A stretch of DNA of 64,000 bases from Candidatus Magasanikbacteria bacterium RIFOXYD1_FULL_40_23 (GTDB lineage: Bacteria; Patescibacteriota; Patescibacteriia; Magasanikbacterales; GWA2-37-8): contig MFRA01000008.1 of the NCBI GenBank assembly GCA_001783215.1, positions 33,312 through 97,311 of the forward strand. Direction: 5' to 3'. Shown piece after piece: positions 2,530 through 64,000 of the stretch. Within the stretch, counting starts at the first letter, position 1. Each line of letters begins with the position of its first letter. The notes beneath the pieces are model-generated. The model searched no databases. It saw only the letters and a program-made list of their open reading frames with translations, and was not told where the DNA came from. A program made the translations under genes and the position numbers.

Positions 2530-3579
2530 ATGCCATTGGAATTTTTAAAACATCTAAATTTTAAACCATTAAATATATTTAAAGCTGTGGTGTTGGGGAT
2601 TTTCGGGGTGTCTGCTTTGGTATTTGTATTTAGCATGATTAATTCTTCTGTGCGCCCACTTCTAAAAGGTGGTATAGGAGAAGTGTCCTCGCCTATGTCT
2701 TATCCTGCTTACGATAGTGCGGCTGGATTTGCTAGTGAAGGAGCTATGTTTTCCAAAGGCGGTGTAGCTACCAGCCTCTCTTTGAGAAACATGTCGCCAA
2801 TTGTTCCACCAATGCAGCAGGGCACAGTTGGTAATAATGCCGAAGATTTTGAAGTTACAGACTATAGCGCTTTTATAGAGACAAGAGACAAAAAAGAAAC
2901 TTGTTCTCAAATCGCTGATTTAAAATCTCTTAAACATGTAATTTTTGAAGTTTCTAGCGAGTCAGACAGAAGTTGTAATTTTACCTTTAAAGTGGAACAT
3001 GCTCGCGCGGCCGAAATTTTGGCCATAATTAAAAGTTTAAAACCAAAAGATCTTACCGAGAATACCCAAACAATAAAACGTCAATTAGATGACTTTACAA
3101 ACCAAACAGATATTTTGAAAAAGAAGCTAGTTTCTATAGAAGAAACTTTGCAGAATGCTTTAAGTGCTTATGATCAGATTACGGCTTTGGCTGTTAAAAC
3201 CCAAGACGCATCTAGTCTAGCAAAAATTATAGATAGTAAAGTTCAGTTAATAGAACGCCTTACTCAGGAGAGAATAAATATAAATCAGCAGCTAGATTAT
3301 TTGGCAAGAGCCAAAGCCGATCAGATGGATAAGCTAGATTATACATTTTTTAATGTAAATGTTTATGAAAATAAATATGTAGATGTTAAAAATATAAAAG
3401 ATTCTTGGAAGGCGGCAATTAAGGATTTCTTCTATAATGTTAATCAGGCTGTGCAGGATGCTTCCATAAATCTTTTGGCAGTTCTGTTTATTGCAATTCC
3501 ATATATTATTTATTGCTTATTACTTCTAGTTGGCGCCAAATATGGCTGGAGATTGGTAAAATATATTTGGAAGAAATAA
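2530..3579 (+). CDS. hypothetical membrane-anchored coiled-coil protein (DUF4349-like architecture)
   Basis: N-terminal and C-terminal TM helices flanking a long coiled-coil region. Confidence 0.45.
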   Translation: MPLEFLKHLNFKPLNIFKAVVLGIFGVSALVFVFSMINSSVRPLLKGGIGEVSSPMSYPAYDSAAGFASEGAMFSKGGVATSLSLRNMSPIVPPMQQGTVGNNAEDFEVTDYSAFIETRDKKETCSQIADLKSLKHVIFEVSSESDRSCNFTFKVEHARAAEILAIIKSLKPKDLTENTQTIKRQLDDFTNQTDILKKKLVSIEETLQNALSAYDQITALAVKTQDASSLAKIIDSKVQLIERLTQERININQQLDYLARAKADQMDKLDYTFFNVNVYENKYVDVKNIKDSWKAAIKDFFYNVNQAVQDASINLLAVLFIAIPYIIYCLLLLVGAKYGWRLVKYIWKK

Positions 3580-3590
3580 AAAATAAATTA

Positions 3591-3618
3591 GCGCCCATCC
3601 TAAACCTAGGGTGGGCGC
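3591..3618. terminator. bidirectional hairpin terminator between convergent genes
   Basis: gcgcccatcctaaacctagggtgggcgc perfect stem, flanked by A/T runs. Confidence 0.5.
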
Positions 3619-3631
3619 TTTAGCTTTAGGT

Positions 3632-3988
3632 CTATTTTGTGTTTCTTTCCAGTGGAACAAAATATGCAGAAATAGTTTGTCCTTTATGTACCAGCGCTTC
3701 ATCAATGGCCATATCTTTAATCAGTTCACCATCCACATAAAACAGCCAGTATAAGTTGGCGTCTTCCGACACATCATCAATAGATACGGCATAGATTTTT
3801 TCAGTGCCGTTTAGATTACGTTTTACTGTAACAACATTATGTTCTTGGATAAGAGTATCCAGAACCGTAGAGTTTCTATTTGCTACCGCTGTAGCAATAT
3901 GTTCTGGCTCTCCAATAACACAATTTGGCAATATGCCGGCAACAACCATAGTAAATAGAACAGTTTTCATCCATTCTCTTCTGCGCAT
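3632..3988 (-). CDS. small secreted hypothetical protein
   Basis: Signal peptide MKTVLFTMVVAGIL; SD-like GAGGA upstream; slightly higher GC than neighbours. Confidence 0.5.
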   Translation of the reverse strand: MRRREWMKTVLFTMVVAGILPNCVIGEPEHIATAVANRNSTVLDTLIQEHNVVTVKRNLNGTEKIYAVSIDDVSEDANLYWLFYVDGELIKDMAIDEALVHKGQTISAYFVPLERNTK

Positions 3989-4057
3989 TTGGAGTTTCCT
4001 CGTTGATGGGTTGGTCTAAAAACACAAACACCCGCTTGCAGGCGAGTGTCGATCGAT

Positions 4058-4100
4058 AAGCACTTTAGAAATGACTAAAATAATCATGTCTAAAGTGCTT
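4058..4100. repeat. 12-bp perfect inverted repeat (aagcactttaga / tctaaagtgctt) with 19-nt spacer, candidate operator or hairpin
   Basis: Read directly; lies in 300-nt ORF-free region upstream of 3632..3988 (-). Confidence 0.4.
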
Positions 4101-4454
4101 AGAGATAACGATATGCTCCTGCTCGGGAGTATGTAACCTAAAATTTATATGATTCCATAATGAAGACCAGGCTTGTTCCCAAATTTGGGACTTTACTGTT
4201 GCGGCACAGCGAGGGGATTGAACCCTACTTCGACAGTACGGAATATTTTGAAAGGACTAAGTATAAGTTTACCGGGGAGTAAAAATAATAGCAAGAGGAT
4301 TTTTTAACAAAAAACCACTCCAATTGTGTTGGGGTGGTTTTTACTTCATTGGGTACCATTATTTATGATATTCATTGAAATGGGCCAACTGCGTACGGGC
4401 AGTTGGCGGGCTTACGCGTCGCTCTTCTCCGTACAGAAGAGTTGGTGTGGGGCG

Positions 4455-5231
4455 CTAGAGCACGTGGCTCGTGCTCGCGTGCTTGGGGCTCGTGACCTCG
4501 GGCGGCGGGGTGGCGACCGTGGACTCGGCGGCCTCGGTCTGCTGCTCGGTCGGTCGGGTCGTTGGGCGCTGGGACTCGGTCGGGTTGTCGTAGCCGCGGC
4601 CGTCGACGTTACGGAGCAGGTCGTCGAGACCGTGGCCGCCGCCGAGATCGAACTCCATCGTGATGTCGCCGCCGAAGATCTGGCCGAGGAAGTTGCCGAT
4701 GCCGGACTCGGATCCCCGGAGGATCTGCATGTCGATCGGCAGTCGGGTCGCCCGGATCTGCTTGAGCGCCCAGATCGCGTCCATCGGCTTGACCTTGCCG
4801 CTCATCACCAGATCACAGGCGATCTCGATGCCGAACGAGAAGGAGTCGATCGGGTTGAGGAGGCTCTCGAACGGGTCCAGGCCGCGGAACTTGAAGTGGC
4901 CGTGGTTCCCGTTCTTGCACATCACGAAGTTCTCCGTGCTGCGCTGGTAGTCGCGCGGGAGGCGGAACTTGTCCACCTGCCTGGCGACGTCGGCGATGCC
5001 GCTCACGAGGCGCGCGTACTCCGTCTGCTTCTGGATCTTGGCCGCGGTCTCGAACGAGATCTCGCCGGTTGCGGACAGGGTGCCCAGGCACAGGCGGGCG
5101 TCGTCCTGGGTCAGGACGGCGATCTGCTCCTCCATGCCAGCCACGATGATGAGGCCGGAGGGCAGGCGCAGCATGCTGGTGAGGCCGTTGTCGTCGCGGA
5201 GGAAGGTGCCGTTACGCATGATCTTCTTCAT
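4455..5231 (-). CDS. hypothetical protein on a very GC-rich, compositionally foreign insert
   Basis: Coherent 258-aa ORF on - strand; the + strand ORFs across 4326..5324 are antisense artefacts typical of GC-rich DNA; canonical SD GGGAGA 7 nt before ATG; Pro/Thr/Glu-rich C-terminal tail; only weak local resemblance (STENFVMCKNG) to proteasome-beta-type segment, not assigned. Confidence 0.6.
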   Translation of the reverse strand: MKKIMRNGTFLRDDNGLTSMLRLPSGLIIVAGMEEQIAVLTQDDARLCLGTLSATGEISFETAAKIQKQTEYARLVSGIADVARQVDKFRLPRDYQRSTENFVMCKNGNHGHFKFRGLDPFESLLNPIDSFSFGIEIACDLVMSGKVKPMDAIWALKQIRATRLPIDMQILRGSESGIGNFLGQIFGGDITMEFDLGGGHGLDDLLRNVDGRGYDNPTESQRPTTRPTEQQTEAAESTVATPPPEVTSPKHASTSHVL

Positions 5232-5442
5232 CAGATTGTCTCCCGAGTCAGCATCCGTTCTTGCGAACGTCCCCTAGTATGCTGCTCAAATTTGTTGTTA
5301 TGTCGGGGAAGAAGCACTTTTTAAATAAAGTAGCTTTTTTCCATACACAACTTGTATATTTGTCTATAAAAAATAAAAACGTCTTTGCGACGTGTCATTA
5401 TAGTATAAATTTTTTGTTTTGTCAAGAAGTGGGTGTTGGTTT

Positions 5443-5937
5443 TTATTTTATTTTAATTATTTTGTATACAGTTTCGTTGTTAGGGATTTGTATTGAATCG
5501 CCAATTTTATGCCCCAATAAAGCCGCCCCAAGAGGGGACATATGAGAAATAATACCTTTTTGTGGGTCTGTTTCAGAGGACCCAAGAATCAAATATGATT
5601 TTTCAGTTTTTCCATTGCCGATAGTTACAGTGTGTCCAATTCCAACAGTATCCATTTGTTTTTGTGGGTCAATAATTACAGCATGTTTAAGCTGGTTCTC
5701 TATGGTTAAGATACCTTGATTTATACCACGGAGCTTTCCTTTGGCCAGTTGGTATTCTACATTTTCGGAAAAGTCGCCTAGCTCTGCTAGTCTCTTTACT
5801 TCTTCGGCAGCTCTAGGTCGGCTATAATTTTTTAGCCTGTCCAGTTTCTGCTCCAATTCCTTTGCTTTCTCAGCTGTAAGCATTGGATCGGATTTCATCT
5901 GGCTATATTTTCCTGGTTTTCTATAAGGTACTTGCAT
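5443..5937 (-). CDS. greA: transcription elongation factor GreA
   Basis: Coiled-coil N-domain plus FKBP-like C-domain; conserved GreA-like segments; true start probably internal Met near 5898 or 5883. Confidence 0.8.
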   Translation of the reverse strand: MQVPYRKPGKYSQMKSDPMLTAEKAKELEQKLDRLKNYSRPRAAEEVKRLAELGDFSENVEYQLAKGKLRGINQGILTIENQLKHAVIIDPQKQMDTVGIGHTVTIGNGKTEKSYLILGSSETDPQKGIISHMSPLGAALLGHKIGDSIQIPNNETVYKIIKIK

Positions 5938-6054
5938 ACAAGTAGGATAGTATCATTTTTTTCGATTTTGGCAAAGTTTGGCTCGACCCCTTGTTTTTTA
6001 TGGTAAAATATGGTAAGCTTATGCTTTGTAGGTTTAATAACTTAATATAAATAT

Positions 6055-53031: not shown

Positions 53032-53640
53032 ATGATTACTTCTATCCCATCAAAGAAAATATTAGTAAAACTTTATTTAGGGCAAAAGAAATCGGCTCAG
53101 GATATTGCTGATATTTTTAAATGCTCTCTAAATAAGATTTGGTACTGGATGGGGAAGTATAAAATAAAATCAAGAACAATTAGCGAGGCAATTTATAGAC
53201 AGAAAAATCCAAAAGGAGATCCGTTCAAAATAAAATATCCAAGTACACTGAAAGAAGCCATGTTATTCGGTTTTGGTTTGGGCTTATATTGGGGCGAGGG
53301 AACAAAAGCCAATAAATATGCGGTAAGACTGGGAAATACTGATTATAGATTAATAAAAAAATTTATTAAGTTTTTAATAAAAGTATTCACCATTAAAAAG
53401 AAAGATCTGAAATTTAGTTTACAGCTATTTACCGATATTAATCCAAAAACAGCACTTAACTTTTGGGTGAATAGTCTGAACGTGACTAGGGATCAATTTT
53501 ATAAGAGTACCATTACGAAGTCAGTCAGAAAAGGAACATATGGAAAGAAAAGTGAATATGGAGTTTTAACAGTTTATTATCATAATAAGAAAATGAGAGA
53601 TGTATTAGTAAGTCTTTTGGATAAAGAAAAAAGTAAGTAA
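53032..53640 (+). CDS. LAGLIDADG-family homing-endonuclease-like protein with N-terminal HTH
   Basis: Single MLFGFGLGLYWGEGT motif (LAGLIDADG variant with GEG) followed by KFIKFL helix; stop codon abuts intron-containing tRNA. Confidence 0.5.
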   Translation: MITSIPSKKILVKLYLGQKKSAQDIADIFKCSLNKIWYWMGKYKIKSRTISEAIYRQKNPKGDPFKIKYPSTLKEAMLFGFGLGLYWGEGTKANKYAVRLGNTDYRLIKKFIKFLIKVFTIKKKDLKFSLQLFTDINPKTALNFWVNSLNVTRDQFYKSTITKSVRKGTYGKKSEYGVLTVYYHNKKMRDVLVSLLDKEKSK

Positions 53641-53901
53641 TGCCGTTGTAGCTCAGATGGTAGAGCATTTCCATGGTGGGTCGCCAATGACTCCTGCCCA
53701 TTGTGAGGGAAATCTTGCAATGTTACCCGAATTACGGTTAATAGCCATTACAATGGCCAAGACCGTGGCGTGAGTACGCCCGAACGACTGACAAGGGGAG
53801 CTAAGCTCGAAAGAGTATGCTCAAGATACAGTCTAGCCCTCTAATTAAAAGTAGAGGTGTAAGCGAAGGAAAAGGTCTCGGGTTCAATTCCCGACAACGG
53901 C
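53641..53901 (+). tRNA. tRNA-Thr(GGU) interrupted by about 188-nt intron between positions 36 and 37
   Basis: Exon 1 gccgttgtagctcagatggtagagcatttccatggt; exon 2 aaggaaaaggtctcgggttcaattcccgacaacggct; stems pair canonically once 53677-53864 is removed. Confidence 0.7.
53677..53864 (+). ncRNA. small group I intron in tRNA-Thr anticodon loop
   Basis: 5' exon ends in U; P1 can form between exon catggt and intron gccaatg; R-like element gaACGACUgAcAAGg, S-like element AAGAUAcAGUCu, terminal G before 3' exon. Confidence 0.6.
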
Positions 53902-54337: not shown

Positions 54338-54408
54338 AGGCCTGTAGTTTCAATGGTAAAACATCGGTCTCCAAAACCGAGGTTCTCGGTTCGAATCCGA
54401 GCGGGCCT
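54338..54408 (+). tRNA. tRNA-Trp(CCA)
   Basis: Acceptor aggcctg/cgggcct, anticodon loop ctCCAaa, T-loop ttcgaat. Confidence 0.85.
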
Positions 54409-55837
54409 GCACAGACCGAAATAGGGCGATTTCCGGTACAATTCGGTAGCCCCCTTTCGCTAAACAATCAAATTTTTTGCCTTTCACCGTAAAGTTCGAG
54501 CCTATTTTTTTAAGAAATGTTCGAATTTGGAGAAAATCGCCGTCCGCGGCGATTTTTTTGGCTTGGCAACTGGATAAAATGAATTCCCTCATCGGTTCGA
54601 GCCAATCGTTGCCCTTGTTCTTAACTTCCTTAATTTTGGCTTCCAGATCAAGTTTGTCGTTGAGGAGTTTTTCTTTTTTGTTTATGTATTCTGGTTTATC
54701 AATAATGCCATCCAAATGAGAATCAAGGAGTTTATCTAGCTTTGTCTTAATAGGCATTATTTGTCCTTCTACGGCCTGAACAAGGGCGTCGGACGACTGG
54801 ATTGCGGATGCTTGCTCCTCGTTGAGTTTAGCAAGCAATTTTTCGGTCCAGTCGTCTGACAAAGAAACTTTTTGCAGAGTATCTTTAAACTGGCTCACCA
54901 ATTCTTCTTCGCGGATATATTTTTCATCACAGTTAGTTCGCTTTTTAGTACAGCGGTAATAAATATGTCCTTTGTGCTTTTCGGCGGTAATGGCTCGTCC
55001 GCAAGATCCACAGCTCATTAGGCCGGTAAAAATATATCCGTGGCTGCTTTTTTTTCGGCGCTTGCCCCGCAAGAGCATTACCGCTTGCGCATCGTCAAAA
55101 AGTTTCTTGGTGATTATCGGTTTATGCGTACCCTGGTGTAGTTCGTCGTTAAAACGAAACACGCCAGTGTAAAAAGGATTTTTGAGAATATGCTGCATGT
55201 CGCCCGGCATCATTATTTTGTTTGTCTTAGTGCGAATATCAAATTTTTGTATTAGTTGTTCAAAAGTATATTCGCCGGTCGCATACAATTCAAAAATCCT
55301 TTTTACAAGTTTATGCTTTTCGGGGTCGGGGAGTATGGTATGGTGGCGCAGGTCGTTATTATATCCAAATGGGGCTTTTCCCGGCCAAATTCCTTTGCGG
55401 AGTTTTTGTCTTATTCCACGCTTTACATTTTCGCTTAGGTTATCTACATAATATTTGCTTTGGCCGAAAGAAATATTAAGCATAAACTTTCCTTGCGGTG
55501 TGTTGTCAAACCAAAACGTTGGAAATTTGAGGGAATTTATTTTACCAGTGTCCAACATGTAAATAACCCGACCGCCATCCACACTGTTGCGGGCTAGGCG
55601 GTCGGGATGCCAAGCCAAAATGCCGTCGGCCTCGCCGGCATCAATTCGCGATAACATTTCGCCGAACAAAGTTCGGCCAGGTTGTTTGGCAGTTTTTGCC
55701 TCGCAAAGCGAGGCGACGATTTCAAGTTTTTCTTTGACGGCAAATTCTTTTAACTCGTCGATTTGAGCGTCGATTGACATTACTTGACGCTCTTCCGATT
55801 CGCTAGACTTGCGAGCGTATAAAAAATATTTGGCCAT
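54350..55837 (-). CDS. large serine recombinase (resolvase domain + recombinase domain + zinc ribbon + coiled coil)
   Basis: YARKSS catalytic Ser region, CGSCG...C..C zinc ribbon, long coiled coil; last about 35 codons are encoded by inverted repeat A and the frame runs antisense through tRNA-Trp, so true stop uncertain. Confidence 0.8.
   Translation of the reverse strand: MAKYFLYARKSSESEERQVMSIDAQIDELKEFAVKEKLEIVASLCEAKTAKQPGRTLFGEMLSRIDAGEADGILAWHPDRLARNSVDGGRVIYMLDTGKINSLKFPTFWFDNTPQGKFMLNISFGQSKYYVDNLSENVKRGIRQKLRKGIWPGKAPFGYNNDLRHHTILPDPEKHKLVKRIFELYATGEYTFEQLIQKFDIRTKTNKIMMPGDMQHILKNPFYTGVFRFNDELHQGTHKPIITKKLFDDAQAVMLLRGKRRKKSSHGYIFTGLMSCGSCGRAITAEKHKGHIYYRCTKKRTNCDEKYIREEELVSQFKDTLQKVSLSDDWTEKLLAKLNEEQASAIQSSDALVQAVEGQIMPIKTKLDKLLDSHLDGIIDKPEYINKKEKLLNDKLDLEAKIKEVKNKGNDWLEPMREFILSSCQAKKIAADGDFLQIRTFLKKIGSNFTVKGKKFDCLAKGGYRIVPEIALFRSVQARSDSNREPRFWRPMFYH
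54406..54510. repeat. inverted-repeat A (blocks X 54406-54480 and Y 54481-54510), starts at 3' end of tRNA-Trp
   Basis: Exact reverse complements found at 55892-55966 (X') and 56094-56120 (Y'). Confidence 0.85.
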
Positions 55838-55891
55838 ACAATTTTATTTATTATAGAAAAGTTTGCTTTTGGTGTCCGCCGAGCGGACAAA

Positions 55892-55966
55892 GGCAAAAAA
55901 TTTGATTGTTTAGCGAAAGGGGGCTACCGAATTGTACCGGAAATCGCCCTATTTCGGTCTGTGCAG
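55892..55966. repeat. X' = reverse complement of block X
   Basis: ggcaaaaaatttgattgtttagcgaaagggggctaccgaattgtaccggaaatcgccctatttcggtctgtgcag. Confidence 0.85.
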
Positions 55967-56070
55967 CGGGGATACGAAAAATTACGAGGGGAATTTATGG
56001 GGGCCCAATAACGGGACGGGCGGAAGGAGGGGTTGGGGGAGGAATTCCGCCCGCCCACCGGCGCGCTTTT
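55964..56070. repeat. inverted-repeat B, left copy (about 107 bp, G-rich, GC-rich)
   Basis: Reverse complement present at 59826-59933 with about one mismatch; many G3-G5 runs. Confidence 0.85.
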
Positions 56071-56093
56071 TAAAAACTGCCAAACAACCTGTT

Positions 56094-56120
56094 AAAAAAA
56101 TAGGCTCGAACTTTACGGTG
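56094..56120. repeat. Y' = reverse complement of block Y (duplicate of recombinase codons KKIGSNFTV)
   Basis: aaaaaaataggctcgaactttacggtg; flanked with X'-B1 by a 12-bp inverted repeat gtttgcttttgg (55861) / ccaaaagcaaac (56122). Confidence 0.8.
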
Positions 56121-56248
56121 GCCAAAAGCAAACTTTTTTTATTATACCATATTAATAATTATCTTAGGTGGACAACTTATCTCTAAATATACTTGTAATC
56201 AAAGGGATAGTATGGTAAAATGTCCCTATCATAACTAATAAAAATATT

Positions 56249-56464
56249 ATGGAAGATCTTAAAATATTAAAAAACATTGATAAAAAACTATCAGCTTTAT
56301 TAGCACTTTCCATAGCTTCATGGTTCGGAAGCGCCGACGAAAAATTGAAGACTAAGCCGGAGACAATCCTTTCAACTGTTGGGATTGAAACAAGCGAAAT
56401 AGCTCTGATTTTAGGAAAAAAACTTGACGCTGTTAGAAAATCTATTCAAAGATCTAAAAAATAA
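56249..56464 (+). CDS. mini-HTH protein, paralogue 1 of 4
   Basis: 71 aa; KKLSALLALS...G....IALILG pattern shared with 56467, 56672, 57805 genes; TTGTAA-17-TAAAAT promoter upstream. Confidence 0.55.
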   Translation: MEDLKILKNIDKKLSALLALSIASWFGSADEKLKTKPETILSTVGIETSEIALILGKKLDAVRKSIQRSKK

Positions 56465-56466
56465 AT

Positions 56467-56670
56467 ATGGATAAAGAATTATTACAAACACAAAAAGAAA
56501 TCGTAATGTTATTAGCTATTTTGGTTAGACGGGGAGTTATGCAATCTAGTATCATTGCTGAAATGGATGCGGTGGGACTATCTCCGAAAAGGATTGCTGA
56601 ACTTTTGGGTACCAGCTCTAACACAGTAAGTGTCGCGCTTTCAAACGCACGTAAGAAAAAAAATAAATAA
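56467..56670 (+). CDS. mini-HTH protein, paralogue 2 (clearest HTH: LSPKRIAELLGTSSNTVSVALSNARKK)
   Basis: 67 aa; sigma-r4/resolvase-like HTH. Confidence 0.6.
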   Translation: MDKELLQTQKEIVMLLAILVRRGVMQSSIIAEMDAVGLSPKRIAELLGTSSNTVSVALSNARKKKNK

Positions 56671-56671
56671 T

Positions 56672-56863
56672 ATGTCAGGAAAAAAGCTAGAAGAAAAAAT
56701 GGATAATTTAGAAGCGATAAAACGTCTATTAGTTTTGTTATTAATCAAGCAGGGGGTTGGAATAGACGCGGTAGCCGATGTTTTAGAGGTAGGAGTAGCA
56801 ACGGTTAGCAGGATGGTGCCGCAAAAAAAGTTAAAAAAAGGGAATAAAATTACTATAGACTAA
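56672..56863 (+). CDS. mini-HTH protein, paralogue 3
   Basis: Start at ATG 56672 one nt after stop of previous gene; ORF-track 56630 start overlaps upstream gene. Confidence 0.5.
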   Translation: MSGKKLEEKMDNLEAIKRLLVLLLIKQGVGIDAVADVLEVGVATVSRMVPQKKLKKGNKITID

Positions 56864-56885
56864 GAATGGTTTTGAACAATTTTTT

Positions 56886-57791
56886 ATGACTCTGAACGTG
56901 TCCGATGTTAGATCGAATGGGCCTGAGCAGATACAACATGCCGCCCAATCCTTAGGAAGATCACCGCAGAGAATTGCGGTTTTTGAAGCCATATACAAAG
57001 GTGGTAGTACGCCTAAATCTGTAAAAATTTTAGCTAATTTATGTTTGGCAGAAATTAAGGATGGGAATCATCGAGAAATAAGAATTGCGCAAGAAGCAGC
57101 CTACTTGTTTAATCATGGAATGGTCGAAAAGTACGTTGATGAAAAAACACACAAATTATGTTATAAAAAAGTTGATTTTTATAAATCACACAAAAAACAA
57201 ATAGTTGAATTCGCGAGAGATCCTAAGAAAATGAAAAAAATGATCAGCAAACGCACGCCTATTGTTCGTGAAGTTAAATCAAGAACAGTTGTATATAAAA
57301 GCCCGATAAATGCAAAACAAATTTCAATTGATGATATTGATAATTTTCTTAAAGTAAAAAAAACGGGCGGTAGTAGCGCCTCGGCCAAAACAATTTTAGA
57401 AAAAAACATAAAGAATGGCTTTAAAAAAATTATTGGCGAAACCGGTAAATTTACAGATTGGGGTGGTGAGAGAAATGATTTATTTACAACACGGGTGAGG
57501 TTAGATAAAAAAAGAATTTCAGCTGCGATAGCATTTAAGGGCCGTGCGACGCAAGGAATATTAACGCCTAAAAAGCTTGGGAAGAATGGAGATCAGATTA
57601 ATAGGCTTTTTACTAGCCCAGCCCAATTATTCCTAGTTGTTTATCATAGCGAAATTGATCAGTCGGTGCTAGAACAAATGAAAGCCTTTGCTGTTGCTGT
57701 AGGACAGGCAGGTCAAAAGATTTACTACGGAATCGTTGATGGTAAGGACTTAAATGCAATAATTACAGCTTATCCTAATTTTTTTAAATAA
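56886..57791 (+). CDS. paralogue-type HTH N-domain fused to Mrr-like (PD-(D/E)xK) restriction-nuclease-like C-domain
   Basis: SPQRIAVFEAIYKGGSTPKSV resembles mini-HTH paralogues; C-part TDWGGERNDL...ISAAIAFKGR resembles Mrr catalytic GDGGID...QAK core (tentative). Confidence 0.5.
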   Translation: MTLNVSDVRSNGPEQIQHAAQSLGRSPQRIAVFEAIYKGGSTPKSVKILANLCLAEIKDGNHREIRIAQEAAYLFNHGMVEKYVDEKTHKLCYKKVDFYKSHKKQIVEFARDPKKMKKMISKRTPIVREVKSRTVVYKSPINAKQISIDDIDNFLKVKKTGGSSASAKTILEKNIKNGFKKIIGETGKFTDWGGERNDLFTTRVRLDKKRISAAIAFKGRATQGILTPKKLGKNGDQINRLFTSPAQLFLVVYHSEIDQSVLEQMKAFAVAVGQAGQKIYYGIVDGKDLNAIITAYPNFFK

Positions 57792-57804
57792 TTAGTAGTT
57801 ACTT

Positions 57805-57996
57805 ATGGACAATAATAAAGAGCTCAATAAAAAATTGGATGCGTTAGTTGATCTTTCCTTGCATTCCCTGGTTTTTTCCATGTATATGTCTGGAAACACA
57901 ATGGATCAGATATGTAAAAATTTACACATACACAAGACACGAGTTGTAGAATTGTTGAAAGGTTTGGAAAAGAATCGACAAACAAATAATAAATAA
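57805..57996 (+). CDS. mini-HTH protein, paralogue 4
   Basis: 63 aa; KKLDALVDLSLHSLV...TRVVELLKGLEK. Confidence 0.5.
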   Translation: MDNNKELNKKLDALVDLSLHSLVFSMYMSGNTMDQICKNLHIHKTRVVELLKGLEKNRQTNNK

Positions 57997-58009
57997 TAAT
58001 CCAAACAAA

Positions 58010-58936
58010 ATGAAAAGCTACTATCGCATAATGCTTGGAAGAGGGAGTGTTTACGCTAAAGAGGCGCATGACGGTAATTATATCGGCGCTGGCTGGTTTG
58101 AGAATGTAGACTTAAGCAACGATCTTCCAGAAAATCGTAGGGATTTTAACAAAAAATTTATACCGTTATACTTGGAAAAAAATCCTGGTAAATCAAAAAT
58201 CGCCGCGGGATTGGCCTGTGGTATGTTATACACAGTGGCCAAAGGTATCTCTGCTGGTGATATTGTTTTATGCCCGGACGGGCAGCGAAATTATTGGATA
58301 GGAGAAGTTCTGGGAGATTATCAGTTTCAACCTGGCACGAACTTGCCACATAGACGCACAATTCGCTGGTTTCCCAAAGCCATACCAAGAGATGAAATGA
58401 GCGAAGCGTTGCAGTACGCAACGGGATCTATAGGTGCTGGCGCAAATGTATCTGGCTTTGCAGACGAAATTGAAAATTTTATTTCAGGAACTCGTCCAGC
58501 AACAATTATTTCAACGGATGAAACTGTTGAGGATGCGGGTATTTTTGCGCTTGAAAAACATCTAGAAGATTTCCTAGTACAAAATTGGAAATCTACAGAG
58601 CTTGGAAAGAAGTATGATATTTATGAGGAGGGTGGAGAATCTGTTGGCCAACAATATCCAAGTGATACAGGGCCTATTGATATTCTAGCGATAAGTAAAG
58701 ATAAAAAAGAGATTCTTGTGGTAGAATTAAAAAAGGGAAGGATTGGCGATGTCGTAGTTGGTCAAATACAACGTTATATGGGTTTTGTTAAAGATGAGTT
58801 AGTCGAAGACGACCAGATAGTTCGTGGTGTAATTATTGCTTTTGAAGACGATATTAAAGTGCGCCGAGCTCTTTCGGTCGCGCAAAATATTGATTTCTAC
58901 ACATACAAAGTTAGTTTTAAACTTGAGAAAAAATAA
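58010..58936 (+). CDS. PUA/EVE-like N-domain fused to NucS/RecB-type PD-(D/E)xK nuclease; candidate modification-dependent restriction enzyme
   Basis: N-part YYRIMLGRGSVYAKEA..NYIGAGW...AGDIVLCPDG...YWIGEV (PUA-like pattern); C-part GPIDILAISKDKKEILVVELKKGRIGDVVVGQIQRYMGFV (D..E.K, QxxxY). Confidence 0.55.
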   Translation: MKSYYRIMLGRGSVYAKEAHDGNYIGAGWFENVDLSNDLPENRRDFNKKFIPLYLEKNPGKSKIAAGLACGMLYTVAKGISAGDIVLCPDGQRNYWIGEVLGDYQFQPGTNLPHRRTIRWFPKAIPRDEMSEALQYATGSIGAGANVSGFADEIENFISGTRPATIISTDETVEDAGIFALEKHLEDFLVQNWKSTELGKKYDIYEEGGESVGQQYPSDTGPIDILAISKDKKEILVVELKKGRIGDVVVGQIQRYMGFVKDELVEDDQIVRGVIIAFEDDIKVRRALSVAQNIDFYTYKVSFKLEKK

Positions 58937-58937
58937 T

Positions 58938-59750
58938 ATGAACAACAAAGACGATCAAAAATTAGTCGATGATTTTCTTTTTAATTATTATACAAAGGGT
59001 GTCTCTCTTAATTTGGATGAAAGTGACTTTATTGAGCTGAAAGGAAGCCATCCTTTTCTTAATTTGTTTAATATAGATGCAGTTAAAAAAGCCATAGCAG
59101 GAAGAAATAAAATTGAGGCTGAAAATTATGAAAAAAGCAGGAATAATGTAGAAGAGCTACAAAATGTTAGCCAATATTTTAAGGATAAGGCAATCGAAGA
59201 TTTATTAGAAAAACATTTTAAAAAGGCAGGCAAAAAGGAAAAGGAGTATATTAAAAATGAGCTTGAGAGTGAATTATATAAACACAGGACTTCCGATACA
59301 TTTGATGGGGAGCTTTACATGGATTTAATAAAAGGTGTCGATGGATTTAAAACCAAGTTTTTTTGGTCAAAAATAAAAAAAGTATTAGATTATGCCTGGT
59401 TTTTATTAATAAAATTTTCAACCTTGGCTGTAGTATTGGCAATTTATGATGTAGTTTACAAAGATTTTGAAGTGGTAGTGGCAAGCATATCTATTTTAAT
59501 ATATGTTTCTTTAACGGGGTTTATACAGTTATATACATTTTATACTGATTTGCATAGGATTGAGTATCTGAACGAGTTTAATGAGCTAAAAAAGATGATT
59601 AAACCGAACTATGCGTACGAAATAAAAGAGAAGGAATTATTAACTAGTATCAATAAAATAAATAAAGGGAATGTAAAAATTTTAATAAATTTAATATTTA
59701 ACTCCATTATTTATTTAATAGCAATTTTTCATTTGCTCAGCTTACTGTGA
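58938..59750 (+). CDS. coiled-coil protein with C-terminal 2-3 TM helices (possible membrane effector)
   Basis: ATG at 58938 directly after upstream stop; ORF-track 58836 start overlaps the previous gene. Confidence 0.45.
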   Translation: MNNKDDQKLVDDFLFNYYTKGVSLNLDESDFIELKGSHPFLNLFNIDAVKKAIAGRNKIEAENYEKSRNNVEELQNVSQYFKDKAIEDLLEKHFKKAGKKEKEYIKNELESELYKHRTSDTFDGELYMDLIKGVDGFKTKFFWSKIKKVLDYAWFLLIKFSTLAVVLAIYDVVYKDFEVVVASISILIYVSLTGFIQLYTFYTDLHRIEYLNEFNELKKMIKPNYAYEIKEKELLTSINKINKGNVKILINLIFNSIIYLIAIFHLLSLL

Positions 59751-59825
59751 GTTCTAAAGAGGTTCGAGGTGTACGTATAGATACGCAATAAAAGAATTTG
59801 CCGTCAAAGAAAAACTTGAAATCGT

Positions 59826-59933
59826 CAAAAAGCGCACCGGTGGGCGGGCGGAATTCCTCCCCCAACCCCTCCTTCCGCCCGTCCCGTTATTGGGCCCCCA
59901 TAAATTCCCCTCGTAATTTTTCGTATCCCCGCT
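59826..59933. repeat. inverted-repeat B, right copy
   Basis: Reverse complement of 55964-56070; ORF 59754..60371(-) and ORF 55932..56186(+) share peptides only because they read through the repeats and are spurious. Confidence 0.85.
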
Positions 59934-60026
59934 GCGATATCCTAAATGGCTATAATAGCCATTTTTTGGTTCTAATATTGACAGGTATTCAGAATTACAG
60001 TATAACTTGCCCCAAGGAGACGCACC

Positions 60027-60625: not shown

Positions 60626-61320
60626 TGTCAACAGGCGTTGGATTTTCTCTGCTTGATTTTCAGTTCGGCCATCTCTATGAGCATAATCATGAGAACAAAA
60701 CGACCAGAGTTTATGGGTTTACCCCAGAAACTTTCCTGCTGTTACCAGGTGGTCACACGCACTTTGGGTTTGTCCTTAGTGGGCATATTGTTTTGGGCTA
60801 TGCTAATGGTAGCAAAATGCCGCTTCCTAAAGGTTGCCATTTCTGTGTAAAAGAGGTTGCTACTGTCGAAAGTTATGGCACGGGGATTGTCAGCTCTGCG
60901 GAAGGCTTTGCTGGCATGAATCAGTTTGGTGGTCCGTTGGAAAACGAGGGCAGATTCCGGTATGTGGACGGTTGTTCCAATAGTTTGCTTGTTCACCCAT
61001 TGCGTAAGGGTGATCCTTGTTTTCATCATCTGCATTTGGATCCTCATGTCAAGGAGATGCCACATACGCACCCATCATTACGCACGCTGGTTGTGTATCG
61101 AGGGGAGGGCGAGGCAATTGTGCCTGGTTTGGATACGGTTCATATCAAAAGAGGTGACGCTTTCGTTATAGAGCCAGACTGTGTTCACAGCTTCAACACT
61201 GGAGAGGCGGGTATGAGTTTGGTTACTTACCATCCCGATAGTGTGGTTGGGTATACCGACGACAACAACCCGATGCTTAACAATACGATCTCAGGCGGTA
61301 AAAGTGCCAGACGAGATTAA
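60626..61320 (+). CDS. bicupin-fold protein
   Basis: Start at ATG 60626 preceded by AAGGGAGA and TTGACT-17-TAATAT; cupin motifs HHLHLDPH...MPHTHP and GDAFVIEPDCVHSFN; terminator gcccacttatctgcctaaagcaggtaggtgggc after stop. Confidence 0.6.
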
Positions 61321-61494
61321 GGGATGTAAAGCACCCACTGTGCCCACTTATCTGCCTAAAGCAGGTAGGTGGGCTTTTTAATTTAAATGTATTTTGAGAT
61401 GTAAATTATAACCCCTCCTGGAATACTCTTTATAGACAAAAATAATCCAAAAAGATATAATTCAAATAATAATATTTGAACCTAACTTTAACAT

Positions 61495-61803
61495 ATGCCA
61501 GAAAAAGAAGTGCCGTTAGCCATAATAATTGAAGCGTCTACAACCGTAGTCGAATTGCTATACAATATTGAGCGAGCGGGTGGAATTAAAAAAAGCAATG
61601 GAAAATTCCAAAATTTAGATGAATTACGAAATGAAATTATTCTTCCGCCAAATACAGATTTATATACAGTAAAAATTATGATAAACATTTTGCCTAGAAT
61701 TATGTCTGGAGTAACCAACACCGACGGTTTTAGAAAAAAATTATCAGAACTTTTATTGAAAGAACTGGAAGCAAAAAAATTAGAACTAGGTGGATCAAAT
61801 TAA
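61495..61803 (+). CDS. hypothetical protein (native AT-rich composition, no SD)
   Basis: 102-aa ORF. Confidence 0.4.
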   Translation: MPEKEVPLAIIIEASTTVVELLYNIERAGGIKKSNGKFQNLDELRNEIILPPNTDLYTVKIMINILPRIMSGVTNTDGFRKKLSELLLKELEAKKLELGGSN

Positions 61804-61928
61804 AATTTTACGATACGCATAAAAAGATAGCTAGCTTGGCTGTCTTTTTTAGTATAGACAAACCATATTCTTCTTGTTAAGCTCTTGTTATTCTGCAGTA
61901 CCAATCCCCGAAAGGGAAGGAGTCGACA

Positions 61929-62129
61929 ATGACCAGCGATTACGAGAGGACTGTAATTAACCCCGGTGACCTTGTTTCCAAGATGGGGTATAAAGCATGC
62001 GTGGGGAGCTATGGCAATTCGCGGGCCGTATTGATTACCCCTCAGCCCGAGGGTAAGTTTCGTGGTTTGGTTGGCCACAGGTGGAACGATCATGTTTCTG
62101 CGTGCCATGCTAGACAAGCGGGTTGTTGA
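61929..62129 (+). pseudogene. possible N-terminal fragment of the PurM-like gene (frame 0) with strong SD
   Basis: GGGAAGGAG SD then ATG 61929; frame differs by +1 from 62062 ORF and overlaps it by 68 nt. Confidence 0.3.
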
Positions 62130-63129
62130 AACAACCCAGAATGATGGCGCTGGCGGCAAGCCGCAGTTCTTTACTTTGGTGGGAACCCCAGAGGCATTTC
62201 GTATGCTGGGTTGGGAGGTTATTGTCATGTGCAATGATGATGTTGCTTGTGGCGGCGGTTTGCCCGTCGTCTTCTCGAGCAATCTAGATATCAAAGAGAT
62301 TACGGCCGAGAACCTGCACTTGTGTGAAGCGTTGATGAGTGGATTTGCCAAGGCGCTTGCCGCCTCTGGTACGGTGCTGATCACTGGTGAGACGGCCGTG
62401 ATGCGACACAGCATTACCGCCTTCTGCGATCGCAGTAATCCTGCGCAGCTCATCGTGAACTGGGCAGGAACGTGTTTGGGCCTTATGCGAACGGATAGAC
62501 CGCCGAACGGTTCTACCATTCGTCCTGGTATGGCGGTTGTTGGTTTGGGTGAAGATGGTTATCGTTGCAATGGCGGTACCGCTCTCACCAACCTGCTTTT
62601 GCAGACTTGGGGACCGCGTATTGAAGACGTGCTGGCAAGCCAAGAAGCGATGGAGTTTGCGAATCAGCTTGTGATTCCTTCACGAAGCTATGCAAGAATG
62701 CTTTCGTATCTTACCGGTTGGCAAAACAATGGCATTCCCGGCGATCCGGTTGCGCGCATTCACGGAATGGCGCACATAACGGGTGGTGGCGTGTGGAACA
62801 AGTTTCGTGAACTGCTTCCGGTGGGAGTGGGTGCGAATTTGCACAACATGCTAAATCCTCCCGAGGTTCTGCTTCGTGCTCAAGAGCTAAGTTATCGACT
62901 TGGTGGCGAGAAAGTTATTACCGACAAGCAGTGCTATGGCACATTCCACGGTGGGTGTGGTGCGTTGTTGGTAGTGGATCCGCAAGATGCAGATTTGGTT
63001 TGTTGGGAAGCGTCTAATTTTGGCCATAGAGCCACGGTTGTGGGCGAGACCACAGAATCTATCGGTAATGAGGTTGTGATTCAATCTCGTTTCCTTCGAG
63101 GCAAATTGCTTTCTTCTCTTCACGAGTAG
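62062..63129 (+). CDS. PurM-like (AIR synthase related) protein
   Basis: Aligns by eye to E. coli PurM: VIVMCNDDVACGG vs VAMCVNDLVVQGA, TGETAVM vs GGETAEM, AHITGGG vs AHLTGGG; GTG start in ORF track. Confidence 0.65.
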   Translation: MVWLATGGTIMFLRAMLDKRVVETTQNDGAGGKPQFFTLVGTPEAFRMLGWEVIVMCNDDVACGGGLPVVFSSNLDIKEITAENLHLCEALMSGFAKALAASGTVLITGETAVMRHSITAFCDRSNPAQLIVNWAGTCLGLMRTDRPPNGSTIRPGMAVVGLGEDGYRCNGGTALTNLLLQTWGPRIEDVLASQEAMEFANQLVIPSRSYARMLSYLTGWQNNGIPGDPVARIHGMAHITGGGVWNKFRELLPVGVGANLHNMLNPPEVLLRAQELSYRLGGEKVITDKQCYGTFHGGCGALLVVDPQDADLVCWEASNFGHRATVVGETTESIGNEVVIQSRFLRGKLLSSLHE

Positions 63130-63264
63130 AACAGCAGTTAAACTAGTATATTTTCTGTAAAACAAAAGGAGAAAAAGGAGGGCAATTAAAAAATCATCAA
63201 GCAGTTGGTGATTTTTTAATTTTAAAATATAGACACCGCCAATCTAAACCGCTACAATAGCTTA

Positions 63265-63684
63265 ATGATAAAACAAAAATATACTTTATATTTAGCAGCT
63301 TTTCTATTTGGAGGAGTTTTTGGTTGGGTGTTAGACACCACTTTCAGATCCCTAAGTGTTGGTTATTATACTTCCGGTACGCTTATCCCATTTTTTTCTC
63401 TTATTTTTGGCACGGGGTCGGTAATGCTCTACGGGCTCTTTCAATATCGCAATATTTCGTTTTTCTTAAGCGTTATTATCGGAACTGCACTGTCTGTATT
63501 GCTAGAACTTGGTGGGGGATCTGTTTCGCGAATGTTACTCAACTATCGTTTGTGGGACTACAGCGCCAACCCATTTAATTTTTATGGGCTTATAGATTTG
63601 GAGCATGCTTTTTACTGGTTTTTATTATCTGTTGCATATAAATTTTCTATGGATCACTCTAGCGGGCTAAAATCACGAGTGTAA
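63265..63684 (+). CDS. hypothetical 4-TM membrane protein
   Basis: ORF with hydrophobic helices. Confidence 0.45.
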   Translation: MIKQKYTLYLAAFLFGGVFGWVLDTTFRSLSVGYYTSGTLIPFFSLIFGTGSVMLYGLFQYRNISFFLSVIIGTALSVLLELGGGSVSRMLLNYRLWDYSANPFNFYGLIDLEHAFYWFLLSVAYKFSMDHSSGLKSRV

Positions 63685-63775
63685 TAACTGTAGTTTGAAG
63701 TTTAAATAGCTGTATAGACAGAAATTTGCTGTTTAGGTAGACTATCTATATTGTTTTTATCTATTTTTATTGGTA

Positions 63776-64000
63776 TGTCAGTCGGTGCGTATAAGCTTTA
63801 TAAAAAAAACAAAGGAGAAATAAAAATTACCTGGGAAGATGTGGAGCGCGACACGCTTCATATTGTGCATGCCATGGCAAAAAGTAATTTTAAGCCGGAT
63901 GTTATTATTTCTCTGGCTCGTTCCGGGCTTATTCCGGCTGCTATGATTTCGTATTGTTTGGGCAACAAACAACTATACGTTATAAAAGCTGATTTTTCTA
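63776..64000 (+). CDS. type I phosphoribosyltransferase (Gpt/Hpt-like), truncated by window end
   Basis: MSVGAYKLYKKNKGEIKITWEDVERDTLHIVHAMAKSNFKPDVIISLARSGLIPAAMISYCL resembles xanthine-guanine PRTase N-terminus; runs off the window. Confidence 0.5.

Follow-up and report, generated by a model that had tools for sequence, protein, structure and literature searches.

What does a seven-gene operon do when it interleaves four small helix-turn-helix (HTH) genes with two nuclease-like genes and ends in a membrane protein? The question is raised by a 64,000-nt stretch of contig MFRA01000008.1 from Candidatus Magasanikbacteria bacterium RIFOXYD1_FULL_40_23 (the window), in which seven open reading frames (ORFs) follow one another on the + strand across 56249-59750 with spacers of 1-22 nt and, according to a sequence scan, with no terminator-like site on the coding strand between the genes. 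Comparison with a relative of 77% DNA identity (locus L001; L numbers designate the compared loci) gave low ratios of nonsynonymous to synonymous substitution (dN/dS) for P301 (0.045), HTH4 (0.096) and P308 (0.038), indicating that the seven ORFs are selected genes rather than chance ORFs and bearing out the tightly packed operon described in a first-pass annotation of this DNA. The operon and the promoter-like site preceding it are composed as follows:

56193-56221, + strand: promoter-like TTGTAA-17-TGnTAAAAT, a consensus match only, 28 nt upstream of HTH1 and within the invertible segment described below
56249-56464, + strand: HTH1 (mini-HTH 1), 71 aa; HTH1-type subfamily, usually distal in arrays
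56467-56670, + strand: HTH2 (mini-HTH 2), 67 aa; HTH2-type subfamily, sigma-70 region-4-like (Pfam Sigma70_r4_2, 2.4e-7)
56672-56863, + strand: HTH3 (mini-HTH 3), 63 aa from ATG; HTH3-type subfamily (Pfam HTH_23, 1e-4, below cut-off)
56886-57791, + strand: P301, 301 aa; predicted winged-helix N-domain, linker and PD-(D/E)xK-fold C-domain, family unannotated
57805-57996, + strand: HTH4 (mini-HTH 4), 63 aa; HTH4-type subfamily, directly upstream of P308 here and in L001
58010-58936, + strand: P308, 308 aa; DUF8426 N-domain and NucS-type PD-(D/E)xK nuclease, member of PADLOC PDC-S02
58938-59750, + strand: transmembrane (TM) protein, 270 aa from ATG; three C-terminal hydrophobic segments, variable slot

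The promoter-like site is to be read with caution, the count of such sites in the region being not above shuffled expectation in the consensus scan.

The answer that we favour, by a narrow balance of probability, is that the operon stacks modules for conflict or defence, each based on a nuclease, in which an array of small HTH proteins (mini-HTHs) gates a swappable toxic nuclease. The first module would consist of HTH1-HTH3 and P301, which belong to an unannotated cassette family, patchily distributed across Bacteria and Archaea, in which one to six mini-HTHs of four old subfamilies in loosely conserved order are followed by a terminal, interchangeable effector. The second module would pair HTH4 with P308, in which a swappable DNA-reader-like domain, DUF8426, is fused to a NucS-type nuclease in the manner of type IV restriction enzymes.

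Hidden Markov models (HMMs) iterated from any of the four mini-HTHs retrieved the same set of ~240 small ORFs, and this convergence identified the four as true paralogues, in agreement with the first-pass annotation. The HTH that had been recognised by eye in paralogue 2 was also recovered, HTH2 scoring 30.7 bits against Pfam Sigma70_r4_2 (cut-off 25.7), and the other three gave sub-threshold matches to HTH_23, GerE or HTH_7. Family members are 55-80 aa long and consist of an N-terminal amphipathic helix, the HTH and a basic tail.

Eighty-seven loci with P301 homologues were compared, comprising 80 GTDB species genomes, six metagenome assemblies and the window. A conserved neighbourhood in other genomes had been set beforehand as a test, and it was found: 82 of the 87 loci carried one to six mini-HTH genes (mode 3), packed on the same strand directly upstream of P301, sometimes with one or two just downstream, and frequently overlapping. 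Across whole loci, 217 mini-HTH matches were adjacent to P301 and 34 lay beyond the same-strand adjacent zone, most of the latter belonging to divergent or second arrays. The array, first presented as surrounding both nucleases, is thus tied to the P301 family and not to the two jointly; no mini-HTH array was seen beside three sampled P308 homologues. No other family of at least 110 aa was conserved within 10 kb on either side of the P301 cassettes, which were found in Planctomycetota, Acidobacteriota, Nitrospirota, Proteobacteria, Actinomycetota and the Candidate Phyla Radiation (CPR) among Bacteria, and in Thaum-, Bathy-, Woese- and Haloarchaea.

Clustering resolved four mini-HTH subfamilies with positional bias, each of the window paralogues falling into a different one. 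HTH3-type proteins (58 members at 51 loci) stood directly upstream of P301 in 40 of 58 cases, HTH4-type proteins (54 members, 39 loci) occupied the first to third upstream positions, HTH2-type proteins (86 members, 52 loci) mostly the second to sixth, often in several copies, and HTH1-type proteins (15 members, 14 loci) were distal. A profile of the HTH3 type retrieved 614 small proteins, about matching the number of P301 homologues. The proposal that the mini-HTHs are pieces of one degraded gene was rejected, because they have their own start codons, form four subfamilies conserved across phyla as separate genes and, in the case of HTH4, evolve with a dN/dS of 0.10.

The effector behind the array proved to be interchangeable. 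The same arrays, built of the same subfamilies, ran into four effector types besides the HTH4-P308 pair, namely P301 and three kinds of HEPN protein. The first kind, a match to PADLOC PDC-M34B, is a HEPN-like protein of 171-175 aa with the motif RNIVAH (R-x4-H) and was found in L001, L005, L014, L017, L020 and L032; the second, Ymh, has 241 aa and was found in L100 and L101; the third, HEPN_Swt1, has 264 aa and lies in L104 between hsdM and hsdS. The window contains no HEPN gene, and its nearest relative, L001, has one. HEPN abortive-infection modules (Swt1/Abi2-like, Ymh, PDC-M34B) therefore share the effector slot of these arrays and co-occur with P301 cassettes. Since HEPN proteins are predicted RNases, their presence behind the same arrays argued against a function of mini-HTHs as DNA-specificity subunits and favoured a regulatory, neutralising or sensing role; of the two functions first proposed for the mini-HTHs, specificity or regulatory modules, the regulatory one gained and the DNA-specificity one lost.

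At L104 (3048-4468, and also in L105), an array of HTH2, HTH2 and HTH3 type with its HEPN_Swt1 gene is inserted in a type I restriction-modification (RM) operon, a placement between hsdM and hsdS that recalls the anticodon nuclease PrrC. Positions 3750-11379 of L005 (Candidatus Nealsonbacteria, CP179890) contain a recombinase, two mini-HTHs with a P301 homologue, an N6_N4 methyltransferase paired with an IceA-like nuclease, and a further mini-HTH array that precedes a HEPN gene of the PDC-M34B type; by gene content the region is a compact defence island of a complete 676-kb CPR genome. Ymh and Swt1-like proteins were described as HEPN families from RM contexts in a 2013 survey, which knows a sigma-HTH solely in fusion with HEPN proteins of the DUF4145 family and in which term searches of the text found nothing on small-HTH gene arrays (PMC3710099). 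Literature searches returned no description of small-HTH gene arrays and nothing for PDC-M34.

P301, the effector of the first module in the window, is an unannotated protein whose 785 homologues are all named at most 'hypothetical protein'. It matched nothing in Pfam, NCBIfam, PADLOC (E up to 1) or PHROG, and sequence comparison with PDB, using either the single sequence or a 31-sequence profile, gave no match. An AlphaFold2 model built with alignments (pLDDT, the predicted local distance difference test score, was 85 for the whole of P301 and 92.6 for its C-domain) predicted a winged helix at ~aa 12-95, a linker, and a PD-(D/E)xK fold at ~aa 170-300. Structural matches of the modelled C-domain were almost exclusively to restriction-type nucleases, with scores of 8.2 for FokI, 7.9 for AF1548, 6.8 for LlaBIII, 6.6 for MspJI, 6.6 and 6.5 for BspD6I, 6.5 for AspBHI, 6.3 for Hna, 6.1 for Avs4, 5.7 for HamA and 5.7 for NucS; Foldseek of the C-domain against PDB returned nothing significant. 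Residues invariant in the 31 sequences include E172, D191, W192, G194, E195, D198, K218, Q237 and R240, and the spacing of D198 and K218 equals that of the FokI catalytic pair. P301 nevertheless differs from FokI in sequence (12% identity to its cleavage domain), in carrying A, G or S at the equivalent of D467, and in having neither a methyltransferase partner nor the FokI recognition domains.

The model supports a restriction-endonuclease fold with an Mrr-like layout, in which a predicted N-terminal winged helix precedes a C-terminal PD-(D/E/Q)xK fold. The Mrr-like character originally assigned to the 301-aa protein accordingly survived as to fold and layout and failed as to sequence, as there was no Mrr_cat or other Pfam match and the acid or Q of the (D/E/Q)xK motif was absent. 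Its N-terminus, first taken to be an HTH of the mini-HTH type, was not one: the mini-HTH HMM did not match it, and profile-profile comparison returned a probability of 0.9%. Relatives of P301 were not found among 2.9 million viral contigs, and in phages and plasmids there were partial core-domain matches only, in one GenBank phage contig and two actinobacterial plasmids. A phage-borne origin of the cassette is unsupported on these counts, with zero relatives in viral contigs and the one partial phage match.

P308 matched the PADLOC candidate family PDC-S02 from end to end (PDLC04799, E 2.9e-151 over residues 1-307 of 308; PDLC04824, E 1.4e-150), and it shares with that family the two-domain layout and relatives located among restriction and defence genes. 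Structurally it is no different from PDC-S02, but it is preceded by HTH4 and lies within a larger operon. By sequence, P308 is thus already catalogued, solely as a member of a candidate family; no paper characterising PDC-S02 was found, the mentions numbering 1-4 per paper and never standing in a title or abstract, and literature searches for DUF8426 returned nothing.

The C-domain of P308 matched Pfam NucS_C (E 4.8e-9, 36.7 bits, cut-off 24) and aligned with P. abyssi NucS (PDB 2vld) over IDIL..ELK..Q..Y with the catalytic D..ExK..QxxxY intact, confirming the predicted NucS-type PD-(D/E)xK nuclease domain. P308 is not the NucS mismatch-repair enzyme proper, as it reached 41.7 and 25.2 bits with the NCBIfam equivalogs (cut-offs 216 and 252), in its C-terminal part only, and DUF8426 takes the place of the N-terminal DNA-binding domain of NucS. 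The other half of the original domain assignment, a PUA/EVE-like N-domain, received no sequence support from Pfam or PDB: EVE, PUA, ASCH and SRA were absent from the 25 commonest Pfam families of 49 N-domain members (E up to 1), and there was no PDB sequence-profile match.

Homologues of P308 number more than 8000, and both PF28530 (DUF8426) and PF01939 (NucS_C) were precomputed in 120 of 120 among the matches listed; residues 1-185 as query retrieved 1016 proteins among 1.84 billion representatives. DUF8426 was found elsewhere fused to McrB-type AAA_5, MrcB_N, GmrSD (GmrSD_N/C), Mrr_cat and HSDR_N, and one DUF8426 protein also matched Pfam NA-iREase1. All three sampled P308 homologues adjoined DNA methyltransferases, one of them also lying near a GmrSD/HNH gene and another following an MmeI-like enzyme. 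Because DUF8426 is shuffled among type IV nucleases and occurs in RM and defence neighbourhoods, it behaves as a type IV reader domain would. These observations, with the full-length PDC-S02 match, lend support to the first-pass reading of the 308-aa protein as type-IV-restriction-like, with a candidate reader domain joined to a nuclease.

Like the type IV enzymes (Mrr, MspJI/AspBHI, McrBC, GmrSD), P308 joins a reader-like domain to a PD-(D/E)xK nuclease with intact motif in an operon without a methyltransferase, and its N-domain is common to McrB-like, GmrSD and Mrr_cat proteins. On the other side, no link between DUF8426 and EVE, PUA, ASCH or SRA could be detected in sequence, and recognition of modified bases is at most a prediction for P308 and P301. 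None of the type IV enzymes is accompanied by arrays of small HTH genes.

The setting of the operon was determined from its flanks. The first-pass annotation had called it cargo, and together with a large serine recombinase it in fact makes up an entire element inserted at tRNA-Trp, with the following parts:

54338-54410, + strand: tRNA-Trp (CCA), chromosomal attachment site (ARAGORN; Rfam tRNA, 61.5 bits)
~54411: attL, where the element begins at the tRNA-Trp 3' end (sequence read)
54350-55837, - strand: large serine recombinase, 495 aa (Pfam Resolvase 3.5e-19, Recombinase 2.4e-13, Zn_ribbon_recom 6.5e-11; PHROG integrase 7.8e-81)
55884-56071, no strand: internal inverted copy of the joined element ends, attP-like (repeat search, sequence read)
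55963-56071, no strand: left 109-nt inverted repeat of the operon segment, reverse complement of 59827-59935
56072-56120, + strand: recombinase gene remnants (codons ~47-53 and ~442-451; 100% identity) just inside the left end of the invertible segment
59789-59826, + strand (sense): recombinase gene fragment (codons 29-41; 100% identity; also in L001) just inside the right end of the invertible segment
59827-59935, no strand: right 109-nt inverted repeat and right element end, attR (99% identity; repeat search)
59944-59964, + strand: terminator-like hairpin with T run (sequence scan)

The chromosome restarts at ~59936, and these two junctions, at the tRNA-Trp 3' end and at ~59936, delimit an element of ~5.5 kb with the operon as its only cargo. 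A three-domain recombinase and defined tRNA junctions (54411 and 59935) place it among the integrative elements of large serine recombinases, with which it shares the Resolvase/Recombinase/Zn-ribbon architecture of the 495-aa protein and insertion at a tRNA 3' end. No empty tRNA-Trp attachment site was found among the metagenome contigs searched. The hairpin at 59944-59964 is probably the original tRNA-Trp terminator, displaced by the insertion.

The seven-gene segment (56072-59826) is flanked by the 109-nt inverted repeats, which are 99% identical, and both of its orientations were found in independent public assemblies carrying identical P308, which is also on record from Candidatus Magasanikbacteria bacterium RIFOXYD2_FULL_39 (CPR/Patescibacteria). 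L087-L090 and L092 showed the orientation of the window. Inversion should create two new junctions, and both were seen: in L091 the repeat links the right chromosomal flank to the HTH1 end, and in L093 it links the TM end to the recombinase gene at its 5' end. The segment is thereby shown to be invertible. Either the recombinase or homologous recombination would be the flipping agent. As in Hin/Gin-type switches and shufflons, the cargo (here between repeats of 109 nt) was seen in both orientations between inverted repeats; the locus differs from them in that the promoter-like site lies within the flipping segment, so that no on/off switch is evident, and in that its inverted repeat duplicates the joined ends of the element itself. 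The locus thus documents, in a CPR bacterium, a minimal recombinase element of which all the cargo is found flipped.

Inverted repeats of 83 nt and 98% identity (54407-54489 and the reverse complement 55884-55966) also enclose the recombinase gene, so the element consists of two potentially invertible halves, between which its joined ends stand as an inverted copy; among the assemblies, none was identified in which the recombinase half is reversed. The recombinase ORF runs antisense into the tRNA-Trp gene for ~20 codons, and because its 3' end enters the tRNA gene, the recombinase C-terminus differs between the integrated and the joined-ends form. The 100%-identical recombinase pieces at the inner edges of the operon segment suggest a past rearrangement. 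In the intact gene, the 17 nt that separate two of these pieces (55698-55714) form the palindrome GCCTCGCTTTGCGAGGC, and palindrome and pieces together may record a past rearrangement at a pseudo-site. A structured RNA in the GC-rich 109-nt repeat was considered and rejected, as there was no credible Rfam family and the repeat folds no better than its shuffles (z 0.88); its single overlapping Rfam match, to a viral packaging signal, reached 26.9 bits against a cut-off of 54, which is chance level.

The last position of the operon is variable. In the window it encodes the 270-aa protein, a membrane protein as first described, with hydrophobic segments at residues ~149-175, 172-200 and 245-270 and no family match in Pfam, PADLOC, NCBIfam or PHROG; L001 has an aminotransferase gene in this slot, and L091 an HTH_24 gene, a variant limited by L091 being a contig of 3x coverage and possibly chimeric. 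At 5643-6923 of L091, the first 21 nt of the TM gene are followed by the HTH_24 gene and by a further ORF, which from its N-terminus, read by eye, is presumably a Rossmann-type NAD-binding dehydrogenase; this region is either another cargo variant or a chimeric assembly.

How such an operon might act can be outlined from its parts. The mini-HTHs would bind DNA, each other or both by way of the N-terminal amphipathic helix and the HTH that follows it, and would keep the toxic effector in check, by repression or neutralisation, until the cell is infected or the element is lost. Once freed, P301 would bind DNA by its winged helix and cut after oligomerising, as FokI and Mrr are known to do, and P308 would cut the DNA recognised by its reader domain. 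We infer a defence stack from this arrangement, with the array acting as regulator, neutraliser or sensor.

Four points weigh against this interpretation. Three to six regulators far exceed the needs of simple repression, which leaves the role of regulator or antitoxin as the weakest link. Most genes immediately next to the cassettes are ordinary ones, with integrases, methyltransferases and defence genes in the minority (N6_N4 methyltransferases accounted for two of the 133 nearest neighbours). PDC-S02 is a computational candidate only, and the defence role of P308 is a prediction from sequence. Finally, the residue two before K218 of P301 is A, G or S in 31 of 31 sequences, so that the second acid of the PD-(D/E)xK motif is missing. 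The invariant E172, D191, E195 and Q237 could compensate for it, and in the P301 family either the acid has been relocated, as in Cfr10I, or the domain binds rather than cuts; cleavage with a relocated acid is well established for the Cfr10I and NgoMIV families.

Addiction is the alternative that keeps the most ground, although we regard it as unlikely. The cassette would here stabilise its mobile element as a toxin-antitoxin system, with mini-HTHs as labile antitoxins or autorepressors, the nuclease as toxin and no dedicated anti-phage role, a model that overlaps mechanistically with a gated defence nuclease and is inseparable from it in this analysis. It would account for small DNA-binding genes lying directly upstream of the nuclease gene and often overlapping, for the cassette being cargo of a 5.5-kb recombinase element, and for the recombinases near L003, L005, L036 and L103; restriction endonuclease (REase) and HEPN domains are, moreover, classic toxin domains according to PMC3710099. 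Most of the 80 genome loci, however, have no integrase or recombinase nearby, the presence of cassettes alongside restriction genes of types I and IV suits defence islands, and 55-80 aa leave a mini-HTH little room for a separate toxin-binding domain. Gene position and coupling do match type II toxin-antitoxin operons and those of C proteins, in which small HTH genes also precede a toxic nuclease gene and are often translationally coupled to it. The copy number does not: toxin-antitoxin pairs normally have one antitoxin rather than 3-6 paralogues of fixed subfamilies, and C proteins (Xre-type) and type II antitoxins (ribbon-helix-helix or HTH) come one per system, as opposed to one to six sigma-region-4- or HTH_23-like paralogues from fixed subfamilies here. 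C-protein-controlled RM also involves a cognate methyltransferase, of which the window operon has none, and a classical RM system was rejected on the same ground, there being none in the operon and none consistently nearby.

A function of the mini-HTHs as specificity adaptors, that is, as exchangeable DNA-recognition subunits that steer the nuclease to its targets in an HsdS-like manner, appears improbable. Several distinct DNA-binding paralogues per locus that keep their subfamily identity would suit such a function, as would the resemblance of the P301 C-domain to the cleavage domain of FokI, which uses separate recognition domains, and the gene overlaps hint at a stoichiometric complex. The same arrays precede HEPN proteins, however, and predicted RNases have no need of targeting to double-stranded DNA; P301 has its own winged helix; no cognate methyltransferase would shield host DNA; and the subfamilies are conserved across phyla, whereas specificity subunits tend to hypervariability.

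It seems more doubtful still that P301 is an inactivated, binding-only REase domain, leaving P308 as the sole nuclease activity of the operon. The family-wide absence of the (D/E)xK acid and the lack of a significant Foldseek match agree with such a remnant, and inactive REase domains are known, one DUF8426 protein matching NA-iREase1. The strong conservation of E172, D191, E195, D198, K218, Q237 and R240 and a dN/dS of 0.05 nevertheless point to a functional site, Cfr10I and NgoMIV cut with a relocated acid, and P301 fills a slot that in other arrays holds HEPN proteins, with R-x4-H (RNIVAH) retained in at least one of their families.

Least credible of all is that the mini-HTHs and P301 serve the element itself in regulation, excision or replication (as repressors, recombination directionality factors or an initiator): the cassette does stand beside a large serine recombinase in four CPR-type loci, the operon flips between recombination-site-like inverted repeats and small HTH proteins are typical of excisionases and repressors, but such housekeeping is made unlikely by the lack of a nearby recombinase at most cassettes, whose host genomes are very diverse and partly archaeal; the cassette is also absent from the viral contig collection, P301 resembles no known Rep or Xis family, and exchange of the terminal gene for HEPN nucleases would make no sense for an initiator or excision factor.

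Returning to the defence stack, a bolder version, which we put forward tentatively and expect to be wrong rather than right, holds that the mini-HTH arrays, whose 55-80-aa proteins would be sigma-region-4/HTH_23-like helix bundles of four ancient subfamilies, are an unrecognised multi-subunit sensor or gatekeeper for P301, PDC-M34B, HEPN_Swt1 and Ymh, and would thus define a new, widespread defence family of Bacteria and Archaea. The data also leave room for sigma-region-4-like mini-HTHs being decoys against phage proteins that take over the host's transcription. P301, the mini-HTH arrays and their pairing with nucleases are new in that Pfam, NCBIfam and PADLOC v2 do not flag them and no description was found in the literature; that the array represents a module of a new type is a serious possibility.

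A compact cassette is thereby missed by current defence-finding tools, since PADLOC v2, Pfam and NCBIfam overlook P301 and most mini-HTHs, and the cassette is common, with ~800 P301 and ~600 HTH3-type homologues in many bacterial and archaeal phyla. Its modular logic, one array of small proteins with varied nuclease effectors, opens the way to direct experiments, for which Chryseolinea serpens DSM 24574 (L045) and Afipia sp. OHSU_II-C1 (L077) are cultivable carriers. If the arrays do sense infection or gate toxicity, they would constitute a new kind of control module for prokaryotic immunity.

Two minor features of the window were observed outside the element. Upstream of the L33 gene, positions 53592-53856 weakly resembled the group I intron of Rfam, below threshold (21.8 bits against a gathering score of 50, E 0.032). 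The GC content rises to 0.45-0.50 at positions 3000-6000 and 61000-64000, against a background of ~0.38.

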